Part shown: piece by piece, positions 48,105 to 64,000 of the stretch | Position numbering within the stretch: the first letter of the stretch is position 1 | Layout of the letters: each line of letters begins with the position of its first letter | NCBI RefSeq assembly: GCF_024298765.1 | Contig: NZ_CP101210.1 | Source of the DNA: Escherichia coli | GTDB taxonomy: Bacteria; Pseudomonadota; Gammaproteobacteria; Enterobacterales; Enterobacteriaceae | Reading direction: 5' to 3' (one strand) | Length of the DNA: 64,000 nt | Notes under the pieces: generated by a model | Seen by the model: the letters and a program-made list of their open reading frames with translations, nothing else | What the model was told of the DNA's origin: nothing | Database searches by the model: none | Program-made: the position numbers and the translations under genes

Positions 48105-48180
48105 TGGTGCCCGGACTCGGAATCGAACCAAGGACACGGGGATTTTCAATCCCCTGCTCTACCGACTGAGCTATCCGGGC
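48105..48180 (-). tRNA. pheV: tRNA-Phe (anticodon GAA)
   Basis: Reverse complement reads GCCCGGATAGCTCAGTCGGTAGAGCAGGGGATTGAAAATCCCCGTGTCCTTGGTTCGATTCCGAGTCCGGGCACCA; pheV rather than pheU inferred from neighbouring yqgA-speC. Confidence 0.95.
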
Positions 48181-58970: not shown

Positions 58971-59978
58971 GTGAAAAAGCAATGGATTGTTGGTACGGCG
59001 CTGCTTATGTTGATGACTGGTAATGTCCGGGCAGATGGTGAACCGCCAACTGAAAATATCTTAAAAGATCAATTCAAAAAGCAGTATCACGGCATTCTCA
59101 AGCTTGATGCCATCAGCTTAAAAAATCTTGATGCTAAGGGTAATCAGGCCACCTGGTCAGCGGAAGGCGATGTCTCTTCCAGTGACGATCTCTATACCTG
59201 GGTCGGTCAGTTGGCAGATTACGAACTGCTCGAACAGACCTGGACGAAAGATAAACCGGTAAAATTCTCGGCGATGTTAACCAGTAAAGGAACGCCCGCT
59301 TCTGGCTGGTCGGTGAACTTTTACTCTTTTCAGGCGGCAGCCAGCGATCGTGGGCGGGTGGTCGACGATATCAAAACGAATAATAAATATCTGATCGTGA
59401 ATAGCGAAGATTTCAATTATCGCTTTAGTCAGCTTGAGTCTGCGTTGAATAACCAGAAGAACTCGATTCCTGCGCTGGAAAAGGAAGTGAAAGCGCTTGA
59501 TAAGCAAATGGTGGCGGCGCAGAAAGCAGCGGATGCATATTGGGGAAAAGATGCAAACGGTAAGCAAATGACCCGCGAAGACGCCTTTAAAAAAATTCAC
59601 CAACAGCGTGATGAGTTTAATAAACAGAATGATAGCGAGGCGTTCGCGGTTAAATATGACAAAGAGGTTTATCAACCGGCGATTGCGGCATGTCATAAAC
59701 AGAGTGAAGAGTGTTATGAAGTGCCGATTCAGCAGAAGCGAGATTTCGATATCAACGAACAACGGCGACAGACTTTTCTGCAATCACAAAAACTTAGCCG
59801 TAAATTGCAGGATGACTGGATAACGCTCGAAAAAGGGCAATATCCGTTAACGATGAAAGTTTCAGAAATAAACAGTAAAAAAGTCGCGATTTTGATGAAA
59901 ATTGACGATATCAATCAGGCTAATGAACGCTGGAAAAAAGACACCGAACAACTGCGGCGCAATGGGGTGATTAAGTAA
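58971..59978 (+). CDS. yggM: DUF1202 periplasmic protein YggM
   Basis: 335 aa MKKQWIVGTALLMLMTGNVRADGEPPTENILKDQFKK... Confidence 0.8.
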   Translation: MKKQWIVGTALLMLMTGNVRADGEPPTENILKDQFKKQYHGILKLDAISLKNLDAKGNQATWSAEGDVSSSDDLYTWVGQLADYELLEQTWTKDKPVKFSAMLTSKGTPASGWSVNFYSFQAAASDRGRVVDDIKTNNKYLIVNSEDFNYRFSQLESALNNQKNSIPALEKEVKALDKQMVAAQKAADAYWGKDANGKQMTREDAFKKIHQQRDEFNKQNDSEAFAVKYDKEVYQPAIAACHKQSEECYEVPIQQKRDFDINEQRRQTFLQSQKLSRKLQDDWITLEKGQYPLTMKVSEINSKKVAILMKIDDINQANERWKKDTEQLRRNGVIK

Positions 59979-59994
59979 CTCATGTTAAGTGCCT

Positions 59995-60035
59995 TTGCCG
60001 GATAATATAAAAAGTTATCCGGCAAATTATTTTTT
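59995..60035. terminator. bidirectional terminator between yggM and TRAP dctM
   Basis: Stem TTGCCGGATAA/TTATCCGGCAA, loop TATAAAAAG, flanking T-run. Confidence 0.55.
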
Positions 60036-61335
60036 ACATTAGCCCTAGTAGCTGTGGAATGAACAAGGATATTTGCGGGATGTAAGTGATCATCATCAAC
60101 GCGATTAACAATGCGGCATAAAATGGCAGCAATGGTTTGATCAAATGTTGAATCTTCACACCTGAAATAGAACAACCAACAAATAGCGCACTACCCACCG
60201 GCGGTGTTAACAGCCCAATACAAAGGTTAGCCACCATCATAATACCGAAATGTACCGGATCCATTCCCAGCTCTTGTGCAATCGGCAAGAAGATTGGTGT
60301 GAAGATTAGTACAGCCGGTGTCATGTCCATAAAGATGCCGACAATTAATAAGACGATATTAATCAGCAGCAATATGATCAGTGGGTTATCAGAAATCCCC
60401 ATCAATGCGTCGCTGATCATATAAGGAATATCAGCATTGGTCATTGCCCAGGACATGCCCACGGAAAAACCGATCAACAGTAATACAATCGAAGTGGTAA
60501 CAACCGATTCCAGAATCAGTTTGGGTAAATCGCGCCATTTTACTTCCCGGTAAATCAGCACCGAGAGAATAAATGTGTAGACAACGGCAATTGCTGACGC
60601 TTCAGTTGCGGTAAAAATGCCGCCCAGAATGCCGCCCATTACAATGAACACCAGAAGCAAACTTGGTAAGGCATCCAGAAAAGCTTTACATGCCTGAGCA
60701 AAGGTTGCTCTTTCTGAAAGTGGGTAGCCACGGCGTTTAGCAATAATGCCGCAGACTATCATTACCGCGAGACCCATTAAGATCCCTGGCAAATATCCCG
60801 CCATAAATAACGATGCTACAGAAACGCCGCCAGCTGTCAGGGAAAACACAATTAACACGTTTGAGGGCGGTATCAGTAATCCAGTAATACAAGATGAGAC
60901 GTTTACAGCGGTAGAAAATGCCGGATCATAACCTTCTTTGGTCTGAATGGGATTCAGTGTGCCACCAACGGCAGCAGCTGCCGCAACGGCTGAACCAGAA
61001 ATGGAACCAAACATCATATTCGCCAGGACGTTCACATGACCAAGCGAACCAGGAACGCGGCCAACCATTACCTGGGCGAGGTTAATCAAACGTATCGCAA
61101 TACCGCCGCTGTTCATCAGTGTTCCGGCAAAGATGAAAAAGGGGATTGCCAACAGGGCAAAGTTATCCAGTCCATTAGCCAATCGTTGCGAAACAGTGAT
61201 TGCCGCGATATCCCAGGGAAACATCAACAGCATTGAAGCTACAGTCGCAATAGCGATTGAGAACGAAATGGGCACACCAATAAAGACCAGCACAAAAAAA
61301 CAGTCAAACAGTGTAATCGCGATATAACTATCCAT
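60034..61335 (-). CDS. TRAP transporter large permease (DctM family)
   Basis: 433-aa polytopic ORF; start overlaps DctQ stop. Confidence 0.8.
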   Translation of the reverse strand: MDSYIAITLFDCFFVLVFIGVPISFSIAIATVASMLLMFPWDIAAITVSQRLANGLDNFALLAIPFFIFAGTLMNSGGIAIRLINLAQVMVGRVPGSLGHVNVLANMMFGSISGSAVAAAAAVGGTLNPIQTKEGYDPAFSTAVNVSSCITGLLIPPSNVLIVFSLTAGGVSVASLFMAGYLPGILMGLAVMIVCGIIAKRRGYPLSERATFAQACKAFLDALPSLLLVFIVMGGILGGIFTATEASAIAVVYTFILSVLIYREVKWRDLPKLILESVVTTSIVLLLIGFSVGMSWAMTNADIPYMISDALMGISDNPLIILLLINIVLLIVGIFMDMTPAVLIFTPIFLPIAQELGMDPVHFGIMMVANLCIGLLTPPVGSALFVGCSISGVKIQHLIKPLLPFYAALLIALMMITYIPQISLFIPQLLGLM

Positions 61336-61847
61336 TAACTGGCCTCCTGCGCAGGTTGTTTCAGTTGTTGAATGCTTTGATTAATAAAACACAAGGCATA
61401 AAACATCATCACCACTCCACTTAATGGCAGAATGATATATACGTATCCCATCGGTATTTGCATTGCGGCAGATACCTGTGATGTTGCCAGTGTTTTATCA
61501 ATTAATTTCAGGCCACCAGTCACAATGACCGAACCGGCAAAACCTAAAATAAGAACGTTAATGACTATACTAAGAAGTAATTGCTTGCGCTTATTCAGGG
61601 CGAGAGCAAATAAATCGATAGAGAGATGTCTCTGCGCGCCGACGGTATATGCAGCACCTAATAATCCTACCCAGATCATCAAAAAGCGTGCCAGCTCATC
61701 GGTTAATGTACTTGGCTGGTTAAGTACGTAGCGGCTAAATACTTGCCAGACTACGCATACAACCAGAGCAAGCATTACGGCGACAGAAAACGCGGCAATG
61801 ACGCGGTCTACCGCAAGTTTCAGGCGGTTAAATATCATTGTAAGCAT
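61335..61847 (-). CDS. TRAP transporter small permease (DctQ family)
   Basis: 170-aa 4-TM ORF between DctP and DctM. Confidence 0.75.
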   Translation of the reverse strand: MLTMIFNRLKLAVDRVIAAFSVAVMLALVVCVVWQVFSRYVLNQPSTLTDELARFLMIWVGLLGAAYTVGAQRHLSIDLFALALNKRKQLLLSIVINVLILGFAGSVIVTGGLKLIDKTLATSQVSAAMQIPMGYVYIILPLSGVVMMFYALCFINQSIQQLKQPAQEAS

Positions 61848-61882
61848 CCTGGAAAATCAGGGCCAGAGACTGGCCCGAAATA

Positions 61883-62869
61883 TTATTGAGCAGCGTTGTC
61901 GAATTTCTCTAACAAAGCAGCTTGTTTTGGATCTTTTTTGAAGTCGTCAAACAGAGGTTGAACTGCGGCACGGAATGGGGCTTTATCAACCTTAACGATT
62001 TCACCACCCATAGCTTTCGCCTGAGCACGTGTGTCAGCGTCAATTTTTTCCCACAATTTTTGTTGATAAGCTTCGGATTTCTTCGCCGCTGTTTCGAGGA
62101 TTTGTTGCTGTTCTGGGGTTAATTTATTCCATGTTTTGGTGGAGATAACCAAAAAGTCAGGAATTGAGGCATGTTCATCTTCAGAAAAGACTTTGGCAAT
62201 TTCGATATGTCGAGTCTGCACCCAGGAAGGCACGTTATTTTCTGCGCCATCTACTACACCTTGTTGCATCGCAGTATAAACTTCGCCAAATGAAATTGGA
62301 GTGGGTGAGCCACCCATCAGTTCAATCATTTTGATGGTGGTCGGGCTTGGCTGAACACGAATTTTCAGCCCTTTAAGATCTTCTGGCTTAGTAATCGGTT
62401 TTTTCGCATAGAAACTGCGAGTACCCGCTACATAAGCTGATAAAGCAAAAAAGCCTTTATCTTTTGTTGAATCCATAATTTCTTTACCAACTTCACCAAA
62501 AACCACTTTGTTGAAGTGCGCCTGATCTTTAAATAAGAACGGCAAATTATAGATAGCATAAATATTATCAAAAGACTCCAGATCACTGGCGGAACCTTTG
62601 GTCATATCCAGTGCACCATTTTGCAACAACTCCATAGTTTCTCGCGCATTACCCATCTGGCTGCTGGGGTAAATACGGATCACCATATTACCTTTTGACA
62701 GCTGTTTTACTTCTTTCGCCAGCTCTTCAAAACTCTGATGTACAACATGACTTCTTTCCAGGTTGTGTGCTAACTTTAACGTCACTTTTTCTGCGGCGTT
62801 TACGCCAGTGCTAACCAGAGCCAGCAAGGATGCGCAGACTAATGAGCGGGTAAATGACCTCATTTTCAT
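61883..62869 (-). CDS. TRAP transporter substrate-binding protein (DctP family)
   Basis: 328 aa with signal peptide MKMRSFTRSLVCASLLALVSTGVNA. Confidence 0.8.
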   Translation of the reverse strand: MKMRSFTRSLVCASLLALVSTGVNAAEKVTLKLAHNLERSHVVHQSFEELAKEVKQLSKGNMVIRIYPSSQMGNARETMELLQNGALDMTKGSASDLESFDNIYAIYNLPFLFKDQAHFNKVVFGEVGKEIMDSTKDKGFFALSAYVAGTRSFYAKKPITKPEDLKGLKIRVQPSPTTIKMIELMGGSPTPISFGEVYTAMQQGVVDGAENNVPSWVQTRHIEIAKVFSEDEHASIPDFLVISTKTWNKLTPEQQQILETAAKKSEAYQQKLWEKIDADTRAQAKAMGGEIVKVDKAPFRAAVQPLFDDFKKDPKQAALLEKFDNAAQ

Positions 62870-63136
62870 AAAAAAACTCCCTGTTGAAGAATGGAAATTG
62901 GTTGATATCTAATTGTGCTTATCAGTGCTTTGTGCGACAAATTGGTTAACCTGTCTGACAACTTGTCTATGTTTATCACAACTTGAAATAAAGTCAGAAA
63001 TTAAATATTAATTTTGTGCGCCAGGTTGTACATGTTTATAATCAATAAATGATGAGTAAATATTCACTAAATATATATAATAAATATCGTCGATATTTAT
63101 TCTGTAAGAAATATATTTTTGCCGAAGTTAATTAAC

Positions 63137-63150
63137 GGGGGGGGGGGGGG
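63137..63150. repeat. homopolymeric G14 tract (C14 on the TRAP/hemW coding strand)
   Basis: Read directly: ...ttaacGGGGGGGGGGGGGGtaaaag...; between hemW stop and AT-rich region upstream of dctP. Confidence 0.9.
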
Positions 63151-63189
63151 TAAAAGAAGTGATTAATGCGCCCGCAGGCGCATTAATGA

Positions 63190-64000
63190 TTACTCAGCGA
63201 GGAATAATTCAAGAAGTGAGTTTAAGAATAATTTACCATGCTCGGTTATCTGCCAGTAATCCGCACATTCTGTGAGATAACCCTGAGCGATGGCCTCGTC
63301 TAACTGAGAGCGAATAACTTCTTCAGAAAGGCCAGTATACTGGCTAAACTCCACGCGCGGCGCGGCCTCCAGCAGACGGAAGCGATTCATAAAGAACTCA
63401 AACGGCTTATCTGCGGCTTCGACATCACGCTGGCTTTCCAGATACCTTCCTTGCATAAAACCACGCGGATGACGCGTTTTGGTGGTACGCAGAATGCGCC
63501 CATCCGGGAAGGTCACTTTGCCGTGCGCGCCGCAGCCAATACCGATGTAGTCGCCAAATCGCCAGTAGTTGAGATTGTGCTGGCACTGATAACCTGGTTT
63601 GGCGTAAGCGGATGTTTCATACTGCTGATAGCCCGCTGCGGTTAATAACTGATGCCCCTGTTCGAAAATATCCCACAGCGCGTCATCGTCCGGCAGTACA
63701 GGAGGGCGCGAGCCAAACAGCGTATTAGGTTCGATGGTCAGTTGATACCAGGAAAGATGCGGCGGATTCAGTTCAATGGCCTGGCGCAGATCGCCAAGCG
63801 CCTCTTCCAGTGATTGATCCGGTAGCCCATGCATCAAATCGAGGTTAAAGCTACGTAACCCTAAACCGCTCGCCAGATTTGCCGCTCGTTTCGCTTCTTG
63901 CGGGCCATGAATGCGCCCAAGTCGTTTCAGCTTTTCTTCGCTAAAACTCTGCACGCCAATGGAGATGCGGTTCACACCAGCACGCTGATAATCAACAAAG
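63190..64000 (-). CDS. hemW: heme chaperone HemW (radical SAM family), 3' portion; N-terminus beyond window end
   Basis: C-terminal 261 aa of ORF running off the window; matches YggW/HemW. Confidence 0.8.
   Translation of the reverse strand, partial: FVDYQRAGVNRISIGVQSFSEEKLKRLGRIHGPQEAKRAANLASGLGLRSFNLDLMHGLPDQSLEEALGDLRQAIELNPPHLSWYQLTIEPNTLFGSRPPVLPDDDALWDIFEQGHQLLTAAGYQQYETSAYAKPGYQCQHNLNYWRFGDYIGIGCGAHGKVTFPDGRILRTTKTRHPRGFMQGRYLESQRDVEAADKPFEFFMNRFRLLEAAPRVEFSQYTGLSEEVIRSQLDEAIAQGYLTECADYWQITEHGKLFLNSLLELFLAE

Follow-up and report, generated by a model that had tools for sequence, protein, structure and literature searches.

Hexuronate TRAP transporters have been given the name UxuPQM (PMC5507952). 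Systems of this type have a three-gene P-Q-M layout and a carboxylate-binding Arg/Arg/Asn triad, both shared with the Escherichia coli operon described here, and they usually adjoin uronate catabolic genes, whereas this operon stands alone amid housekeeping genes. Hexuronate binders solved by the Enzyme Function Initiative comprise Bamb_6123 (4N15/4LN5), Bpro_3107 (4MHF/4MIJ) and Apre_1383 (4N91), together with 4OVR, 4X8R, 4N8Y and 4XFE, the last four of which we take to be hexuronate binders as well. The 4N91 protein binds D-glucuronate, 4MHF binds both glucuronate and galacturonate, and 4N15 was the template for the glucuronate-binding protein STM3169 (PMC7660916).

STM3169-STM3171 of Salmonella Typhimurium is a D-glucuronate-binding TRAP system (Kd about 0.2 uM) and a macrophage-survival factor under ppGpp and SsrB (PMC7660916, PMC3022708). 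Like the operon studied here it is a stand-alone three-gene operon of the same family in an enterobacterium, but its locus adjoins ygiQ and ours lies between yggM and hemW. A ygiQ..ftsP copy of the STM3169-type locus is found in BEN2908-type and CFT073-type E. coli (PMC12928451).

Two further E. coli systems invite comparison. YiaMNO, the 2,3-diketo-L-gulonate TRAP transporter present in K-12, belongs to the same transporter class and has a different locus and substrate; the Q and M subunits described below score only 38 against the YiaM model (equivalog cut-off 260) and 296 against the YiaN model (cut-off 800). ExuT, an MFS-type permease that takes up hexuronates and belongs to the exu regulon, has the same predicted substrate and regulator as the operon, but is of an unrelated protein family, lacks a binding protein and is generally of lower affinity. 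ExuT is regarded as part of the E. coli core; the TRAP operon is variable. GaaPQM of Agrobacterium tumefaciens, a galacturonate TRAP transporter, is described as having a host-associated sensing role (Zhao and Binns 2016, as cited in PMC5812351); it belongs to another lineage with other regulation, and is likened to our operon by that description only.

The operon lies in a 64,000-nucleotide stretch of an E. coli genome (contig NZ_CP101210.1), here called the window. A sequence-only reading of the window had proposed a complete three-gene TRAP operon at 60034-62869, and open reading frames matching all three families indeed occupy exactly these coordinates, all on the minus strand (Table 1). 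P matches Pfam PF03480 (DctP; E=2e-84) and NCBIfam TIGR00787 (dctP; 285.7 bits, cut-off 175), Q matches PF04290 (DctQ; E=1.7e-30), and M matches PF06808 (DctM; E=3.6e-121, covering 411 of 413 profile positions) and TIGR00786 (dctM; 471.8 bits, cut-off 268). The gene order is P-Q-M, with the Q stop overlapping the M start (TAATG). Hydrophobic segments are seen in Q, for which PGAP (RefSeq) places the start at 61838, 9 nt downstream, giving 167 aa. The operon is a previously uncharacterised representative of a known transporter type.

Table 1. Features of the TRAP locus and its flanks, in window coordinates
Feature	Position	Strand	Description
yggM	58971-59978	+	flank, DUF1202
yggM-M hairpin	59994-60026		13-bp stem, between convergent yggM and M; -18.2 kcal/mol
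M	60034-61335	-	large membrane subunit, 433 aa; Pfam DctM, TIGR00786
Q	61335-61847	-	small membrane subunit, 170 aa from first ATG; Pfam DctQ
P-Q hairpin	61860-61876	-	G+C-rich, GGGCCAGTCTCTGGCCC, between P and Q; -13.5 kcal/mol
P	61883-62869	-	periplasmic solute-binding subunit, 328 aa; Pfam DctP, TIGR00787
Upstream region	62870-63189	-	AT-rich, 320 bp, G+C 0.34-0.39; conserved blocks over about 30 species
Box C	62893-62911	-	TAGATATCAACCAATTTCC; conserved as AGATATTGACCAATT in other genera
Box B	62926-62944	-	second GT-N3-AC palindrome, core TGTCGCACA; centre 21 bp from box A
UxuR-type operator candidate	62939-62956	-	AGACAGGTTAACCAATTT; overlaps box A
Box A	62947-62965	-	ExuR-type GntR-family operator candidate, CAAGTTGTCAGACAGGTTA; core TGTCAGACA at 62952-62960
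CRP-like half-site	62976-62980	-	TGTGA, upstream of box A; same position in most orthologous promoters
hemW terminator hairpin	63162-63187	-	-17.2 kcal/mol
hemW	stop at 63190	-	flank on P side

Three hairpins punctuate the locus. The one between P and Q could partially terminate transcription, or could stabilise the mRNA in favour of surplus binding protein, and that between yggM and M is likely a bidirectional terminator. The hemW terminator hairpin sets the TRAP promoter apart from hemW transcription. An Rfam search gave no match in the locus, and no catabolic gene or regulator adjoins the operon in E. coli.

The reading had given yggM and hemW as neighbours in K-12. They are: in K-12 BW25113 a gap of 154 bp without TRAP genes separates them, and the corresponding gaps are 242 bp in O157:H7 SS17 and 68 bp in CFT073. 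These three gaps hold REP sequence only, with no TRAP remnant, and their junctions are accordingly no proof of deletion. Among 5426 complete E. coli genomes the operon occupies the yggM-hemW site in 1460 (27%). Judging by strain and serotype labels only, carriers include non-O157 STEC and avian and human extraintestinal strains, isolates of O103, O111 and O121 among them. CFT073, which lacks the operon, is classed in phylogroup B2. The label 'accessory' given to the locus by the reading holds within E. coli and fails beyond it, where synteny is conserved: the order hemW-P-Q-M-(yggM)-(ansB)-yggN recurs in Salmonella, Citrobacter, Pseudocitrobacter, Kluyvera, Klebsiella, Pluralibacter and Phytobacter.

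Because of this conserved synteny we regard the locus as probably ancestral and lost in K-12, not as a gained islet; ancestral presence with repeated loss, rather than insertion, probably fits the genome comparisons best. Horizontal acquisition, with an islet having entered the yggM-hemW interval in certain E. coli lineages, is the natural competitor and seems to us quite unlikely. It would account for the patchy spread, including absence from CFT073, for the remnant-free empty sites and for the composition of the operon: G+C is 42-46% against 51-55% in the flanks, GC3 is likewise lower, and synonymous divergence from Salmonella is higher (pS 0.73-0.77 against 0.55-0.70). Yet yggM, a K-12 gene, is equally low in G+C (0.444), and the operon has the identical position and orientation beside hemW in at least seven other genera. 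In amino-acid divergence (dN) it is close to the core genes on either side, its dN/dS points to strong purifying selection, and among E. coli alleles identity is 97.2-99.4%, a divergence that tracks yggM and hemW. Between these two genes there is no integrase, transposase or tRNA gene, and the only repeats flanking the operon are short chance repeats. Since G+C is lower and pS higher than in the flanks, replacement by recombination is a possibility.

The operon could also be a decaying, non-functional relic, as its loss from three quarters of E. coli genomes might suggest. Damaged versions, which also suit ancestral presence followed by loss, are known: in strain 06-00048 M is truncated by IS66, and in strain BS-04 Q is a pseudogene or remnant, although homopolymer runs abound in this part of the assembly, which is unreliable. 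Against such decay, of the 1489 genomes showing any match 1461 have 80% or more of the operon, the three genes are annotated as intact in all TRAP-positive genomes inspected, and dN/dS is 0.02-0.06. The signal peptide of P, the ribosome-binding site, the Q-M overlap and the operator candidates are conserved as well, and we consider a relic very improbable.

As to substrate, the nine best PDB sequence matches of P are 4OVR, 4N15/4N17, 4LN5, 4MHF/4MIJ, 4X8R, 4N91, 4N8Y and 4XFE (E 4e-68 to 2e-58), at 36-39% identity. The same hexuronate group gives the top fold matches to an AlphaFold model of P (built from a 17-sequence alignment; pLDDT 86.9), which Foldseek aligns to solved TRAP binding proteins with TM 0.83-0.91. 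STM3169 as query finds eight of these nine matches, missing 4XFE. The label 'dctPQM-type', used in the reading, is correct as a family name and misleads if taken to mean a C4-dicarboxylate system. A DctPQM transporter for succinate, fumarate or malate would agree with PDB molecule names and older annotations, which read 'TRAP dicarboxylate transporter, DctP subunit', but the chains named 'C4-dicarboxylate-binding periplasmic protein DctP' (9DSY, 9DTL, 9HT3) match P far more weakly (E 1e-31 to 1e-33) than the hexuronate set does. There are, moreover, no DctB/DctD-type two-component genes nearby, and related loci accompany uxaCBA-exuR, all of which makes a C4-dicarboxylate substrate extremely improbable.

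The related loci are those of homologues sharing 60% identity, from two species of Aeromonas and from Pantoea sp. IMH, which lie within uxaA-uxaB-uxaC<>P-Q-M-exuR clusters. There the TRAP operon occupies the place that exuT has in K-12, between uxaC and exuR. Such uxa linkage is absent in E. coli and in the other hemW-linked loci.

We rejected P as an STM3169 orthologue: with 46% identity and a different locus it is a paralogue. (A primer published in Haneda 2010 served to find the STM3169 sequence on a metagenome contig.) The Salmonella protein truly orthologous to P is P0008, with 90% identity, encoded at hemW-yggM in some S. enterica genomes; its mass does not match that published for recombinant STM3169, consistent with non-orthology.

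STM3169 nonetheless allows the pocket of P to be mapped. P begins with a Sec-type signal peptide, cleaved between MKMRSFTRSLVCASLLALVSTGVNA and AEK, and its predicted ligand residues are the carboxylate-binding Arg171 together with Arg151 and Asn211. Arg171 aligns with STM3169 Arg170 and is invariant in the 17-sequence alignment; a role of the conserved TRAP arginine in binding the substrate carboxylate has been described (PMC7660916). Five of the seven STM3169 contact residues are kept (Asn35, Arg150, Arg170, Asn210 and Asp237) and two are changed, Gln36 to Leu37 and Glu74 to Ala75. Because of these two changes, which are fixed throughout the hemW-linked clade, the pocket of P is unlike that of every characterised hexuronate binder; at the Glu74 position, Glu is present in all five of the hexuronate-binder structures of the UxuPQM type that were aligned. 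The reading had left the substrate unnamed; homology, gene context and the operator candidates described below now point to a sugar acid of the hexuronate kind, with D-galacturonate and/or D-glucuronate as the likeliest candidates.

The altered pocket is a point in favour of another carboxylated sugar. This could be an aldonate or a different uronate, including the unsaturated or keto-deoxy uronates that polysaccharide lyases release, and the GntR-type upstream boxes would then be the target of some regulator that is neither ExuR nor UxuR. Some neighbouring genes in other hosts lean the same way: in Mangrovibacter one is weakly like an oligoalginate lyase (E=4e-26, well short of the cut-off), and the Enterobacillus operon has genes for an alpha-xylosidase and a GPH-family transporter beside it. 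However, the Aeromonas/Pantoea clade also lacks the Glu, having Pro at that position, and is embedded in uxaCBA-exuR clusters, and the closest solved relatives of P are all in the hexuronate group. We think this alternative unlikely, while giving it more weight than the others considered so far; the upstream region bears on it too.

The AT-rich upstream region that the reading had assigned to the operon has 34-39% G+C compared with 51-55% in neighbouring core genes. A sigma-70 consensus scan of the minus strand upstream of P found no convincing promoter. Two matrices were used for operators, and both place their best position in the window within this region. The first was built from non-Escherichia TRAP promoters only and has its top position in the window at box A (18.5 bits), centred 87 nt upstream of the P ATG, a score reached by none of 2000 promoter shuffles; box A agrees in 15 of 18 positions with AAGTTGTATGACAAGTTA, the palindrome of the K-12 exuT promoter. 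Applied to 65 kb of K-12/O157 DNA, the same matrix has its top match (18.1 bits) in a palindrome of the uxaC-exuT spacer, which argues against an unrelated regulator and sugar, and its top match in each Aeromonas/Pantoea locus is in the spacer between uxaC and P. The second matrix came from six K-12 ExuR/UxuR-regulated promoters, its training sites being self-chosen from promoters known as ExuR/UxuR-controlled and not taken from a curated list, and the UxuR-type candidate is its best 18-mer of the window (14.4 bits). A 13-mer of this candidate, GGTTAACCAATTT, recurs unchanged in the K-12 uxuA promoter, and 13 of 18 positions match the UxuR site AAATTGGTATACCAATTT used in PMC8092373. This K-12-derived matrix gives high scores only in Escherichia and Aeromonas/Pantoea and low ones in the promoters of Salmonella, Klebsiella and Citrobacter, a point on the side of the other-sugar alternative.

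Box B, strongly conserved as ATATGTCATACAG in other genera, is degenerate in E. coli (below 5 bits), and box C resembles the K-12 uxaC-proximal sequence AAGTTATCACACCAATTT by eye, without statistics. Palindromes of the GT-N3-AC form are common to FadR-type GntR regulators in general. The TGTGA element is a weak and speculative CRP half-site; its second half-site is poor in E. coli. Taking the predicted operators together, the operon is probably under ExuR and/or UxuR control.

The explanation that we favour, and consider fairly probable on these sequence comparisons, is that the operon is a functional, ancestral Enterobacteriaceae TRAP transporter of the hexuronate type ('UxuPQM-like'), taking up galacturonate and/or glucuronate under ExuR/UxuR regulation and lost in the K-12, O157:H7 and CFT073 lineages. 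P would capture the carboxylated sugar in the periplasm through Arg171, Arg151 and Asn211 and hand it to the Q-M membrane unit, with uptake powered by an ion gradient, and the imported sugar would enter the core Ashwell pathway (uxaCA, uxaB, uxuAB). ExuR and/or UxuR would repress transcription from operators that lie 65-90 nt upstream of the start codon until hexuronates relieve the repression, with CRP possibly contributing. About a quarter of E. coli would have kept the operon, and the K-12, O157:H7 and CFT073 lineages would have lost it, leaving REP sequence.

A bolder proposal, which we put forward tentatively as a good deal less likely than not, is that the hemW-linked clade forms a distinct specificity class, a galacturonate-selective transporter or a scavenger of non-canonical uronates, wired into the ExuR/UxuR circuit, and that its presence or absence changes gut hexuronate competition or sensing between lineages.

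Galacturonate and glucuronate are gut nutrients that promote colonisation by EHEC and Citrobacter rodentium, and galacturonate is sensed via ExuR to control virulence genes (PMC10990124); the paralogous Salmonella protein STM3169 is a documented virulence factor (PMC3022708). With carriage limited to a quarter of E. coli genomes, a binding-protein-dependent uptake system could make a difference to niche competition where substrate is scarce, and could shift ExuR-dependent signalling in carrier strains, those of O103, O111 and O121 included. In other respects this would be a routine sugar-acid transporter, and its main value is as what appears to be a clean case of a family-wide ancestral operon lost by K-12.

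The three minus-strand genes between yggM (DUF1202) and hemW, here called P (binding protein), Q and M (small and large membrane subunits), have every structural feature of TRAP membership and are by sequence predicted to encode a bona fide TRAP transporter. Their placement by the sequence-only reading was correct to the base, in the ORFs and in all three family matches (table below), and the AT-rich upstream region that it described is present as a 320-bp spacer 5′ of P with 34–39% G+C. Scores for the NCBIfam dctP and dctM models exceed their cut-offs; P has a Sec signal peptide of typical type, ending between VNA and AEK; and both membrane subunits are strongly hydrophobic. The start codon of M overlaps the stop codon of Q (TAATG). 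P and Q are separated by a G+C-rich hairpin, the convergent M and yggM genes by one with a 13-bp stem, and hemW is followed by a hairpin terminator. RefSeq already carries the operon under generic annotation, with a Q start 9 nt later than the first ATG. Just past the hemW terminator, ∼270 nt upstream of P, is a homopolymer of C (G on the plus strand) with length 14 in the window, 13 in strain STE15, 10 in O103 strain RM8385 and 7, 6, 5 or none elsewhere; either hypervariability of the repeat or a sequencing artefact could account for these differences.

Features of the window at the TRAP operon and near the tRNA-Phe gene
Feature	Position	Strand	Basis or remark
TRAP operon, 3 ORFs	60034-62869	minus	ORF listing of window
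P, 328 aa	62869..61883	minus	DctP, E=2e-84
Q, 170 aa	61847..61335	minus	DctQ, E=1.7e-30
M, 433 aa	61335..60034	minus	DctM, E=3.6e-121
yggM	58971-59978		G+C 0.444
CAGCGCACAAAA motif			conserved block upstream of P, ∼30-orthologue alignment
TGTGA half-site			conserved block upstream of P, same alignment
Box A AGATGTCTGACAAC	62947-62965		GT-N3-AC palindrome, same alignment
Box B ATATGTCATACAG			GT-N3-AC palindrome, centre ∼65 nt before ATG, same alignment
Box C AGATATCAACCAATT			proximal conserved block, same alignment
Candidate operator	62939-62956		best K-12 matrix score of the 64-kb window
C homopolymer	63137-63150	minus	14 C
tRNA-Phe	48105-48180	minus	pheV-like
tia-like stretch	24566-25384		76% identical to STE15 island

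The entire yggM-TRAP-hemW arrangement was found by megablast in 1460 of 5426 complete E. coli genomes, and the operon alone, at ≥80% coverage, in 1461; the 1503 matching places are chromosomal except one, and the site is identical in all copies inspected. Carriers include O103, O111:H11 and O121 strains and many avian and human clinical isolates. The operon is absent from K-12 BW25113, O157:H7 SS17 and CFT073, where the yggM-hemW gap measures 154, 242 and 68 bp, respectively, and holds REP-type hairpins only, with no TRAP remnant. The stated adjacency of yggM and hemW in K-12 and the accessory status proposed for the locus both hold, the latter within E. coli. Three public assemblies labelled Collinsella sp., Bacillota bacterium and Alicyclobacillaceae contain hemW/TRAP DNA 99–100% identical to that of E. 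coli, almost certainly mis-binned or contaminating sequence. Elsewhere in the window, positions 1-48104, which end at the tRNA-Phe gene, lack collinearity with STE15, a strain otherwise 99.9% identical that has a pap/fec/tia island at the corresponding place, so that the window carries a different pheV-associated island; the single match between the two is the tia-like stretch.

Outside E. coli, a survey covering a single genome for each species, together with the look-up of a Salmonella protein 90% identical to P, showed the order hemW-P-Q-M then (yggM)-(ansB)-yggN to be conserved in some Salmonella enterica genomes, Pseudocitrobacter, Kluyvera, Pluralibacter, Phytobacter, Citrobacter amalonaticus, C. 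braakii, C. sedlakii, Klebsiella pneumoniae, K. oxytoca and relatives. Identity to the E. coli proteins (P 84–94%, M 87–95%) is comparable to that of the flanking HemW (88–93%) and RdgB (85–94%); dN/dS is 0.02–0.06 in the computable comparisons with Salmonella, Citrobacter and Klebsiella, dN of the TRAP genes falls within the range of flanking genes, and divergence among E. coli TRAP alleles (97.2–99.4%) parallels the divergence seen in yggM and hemW. The operon was found to be free of integrase and transposase genes, of tRNAs and of flanking repeats. Decay states are on record: an IS66 element truncates M in strain 06-00048 (L058 3002-3586), and in BS-04 a remnant annotated as a Q pseudogene lies between yggM and hemW (L059 3694-4394), in a gap so full of long homopolymer runs as to suggest poor assembly. 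S. Typhimurium LT2 has three TRAP systems only, none of them P-Q-M (PMC7660916), so the locus is variable within Salmonella too. The best reading is that P-Q-M would be an ancestral enterobacterial operon, lost repeatedly. Loss followed by re-acquisition through recombination is also possible, given the operon's low G+C (42–46%, flanks 51–55%), synonymous sites more saturated against Salmonella than those of the flanks, and the absence from CFT073. Beside the presumed ancestral operon, yggM is a fast-evolving or variable gene in its own right: its G+C is as low as that of the TRAP genes, its divergence is unusually high (identity 63% to Salmonella and 33–38% in Klebsiella and Kluyvera), and the Citrobacter loci lack it.

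The nine best solved sequence relatives of P (4OVR, 4N15/4N17, 4LN5, 4MHF/4MIJ, 4X8R, 4N91, 4N8Y, 4XFE) have E-values of 4e-68 to 2e-58; true C4-dicarboxylate DctP and sialic-acid SiaP proteins are weaker (1e-31 to 1e-40). A fold search with an AlphaFold model of P (17-sequence alignment, pLDDT 86.9) recovered the same set, with TM 0.83–0.91. Apre_1383 (4N91) binds D-glucuronate, Bpro_3107 (4MHF) both D-glucuronate and D-galacturonate, and Salmonella STM3169, modelled on 4N15, D-glucuronate with Kd ∼0.2 μM (PMC7660916). The STM3169 sequence was recovered via a published primer, and its numbering agrees with the paper (Asn35-Gln36). P was ruled out as its orthologue and is a paralogue, at 46% identity; the STM3169-STM3171 locus adjoins ygiQ (Salmonella metagenome contigs L051 and L052), unlike P-Q-M. 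E. coli of BEN2908 and CFT073 type have an STM3169-type TRAP system at ygiQ..ftsP, with GntR-, UxuB- and YjjN-like genes (PMC12928451); this is the paralogous locus, not P-Q-M, and with this second hexuronate-type locus an E. coli strain can have up to three TRAP systems. By alignment, P keeps the ligand contacts Arg151, Arg171, Asn211, Asn36 and Asp238 and lacks the full hexuronate set: Gln36 of STM3169 is Leu37 and Glu74, found in STM3169 and 5/5 aligned structures, is Ala75. This Ala is fixed throughout the hemW-linked clade, and with such an altered pocket specificity may differ from that of STM3169.

Homologues 60% identical to P, with Pro at the Glu74 position, occur in Aeromonas rivuli, A. 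molluscorum and Pantoea sp. IMH, in clusters laid out uxaA-uxaB-uxaC <> P-Q-M-exuR, the TRAP operon standing exactly where K-12 has exuT. tblastn recognised uxaA, uxaC and exuR in all three loci, and NCBIfam models gave tagaturonate reductase (E=2.5e-227), glucuronate isomerase (1.9e-208) and ExuR (7e-151, above cut-off) in Pantoea. This context points to a hexuronate as the probable substrate, the uxaA-uxaB link favouring galacturonate. The Pantoea cluster (L044 1455-14800) lies between ruvX and yggR and includes a 186-aa ORF without family match, provisionally labelled ygjV-like; it is only ∼3 kb from rdgB-hemW, the chromosomal neighbourhood of the E. coli locus, on the opposite side of hemW.

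Upstream regions of ∼30 P orthologues were aligned to find conserved blocks, among which the centres of boxes A and B are 21 bp apart. A K-12 matrix was built from six palindromes of our own choice in ExuR/UxuR-controlled promoters (uxuA, gntP-uxuA, uxuR, uxaC, exuT, exuR); its top site in the window (14.4 bits), within the P promoter, shares the 13-mer GGTTAACCAATTT with the uxuA promoter and agrees at 13/18 positions with the UxuR operator used in PMC8092373. A second, independent matrix was trained on the box A and box B sites of promoters outside Escherichia only. Its top match in 65 kb of K-12/O157 DNA is AAAGTTGTATGACAAGTTA, located in the uxaC-exuT spacer (18.1 bits); in the window it is box A (18.5 bits, attained by 0/2000 promoter shuffles), and in every Aeromonas or Pantoea locus a site inside the uxaC<>P spacer. 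Counting against ExuR/UxuR control, the K-12 matrix scores poorly on Salmonella, Klebsiella and Citrobacter promoters, the E. coli copy of box B is degenerate, and GT-N3-AC palindromes are common among FadR-type GntR regulators. On balance P-Q-M is most likely under ExuR/UxuR control, as we infer from these predicted operators. A sigma-70 scan found no clear promoter upstream of P, and an Rfam search of the locus no match. The second-best match of the box A/B matrix in K-12 DNA, CCAGATGTCATACAGGTTT, lies ∼150 nt inside uxaC (L048 6602-6620), and Pantoea uxaC has a similar sequence at the corresponding position (L044 6416-6434). An internal ExuR site could explain this, as could mere coding conservation.

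Nearest relatives, context in related clades and operator evidence support placing P-Q-M in the hexuronate-binding group, although the full ligand-contact set, one of that group's defining features, is incomplete in P. The operon's product is predicted to work as do the hexuronate transporters that PMC5507952 calls ‘UxuPQM’. No paper characterising this orthologue group was found in the literature. Gut hexuronates have roles in colonisation and in ExuR-mediated virulence control (PMC10990124). The operon represents an uncharacterised orthologue group inside a known TRAP class. Its significance is modest and comes mainly from this gut role of hexuronates and from its strain-variable presence.
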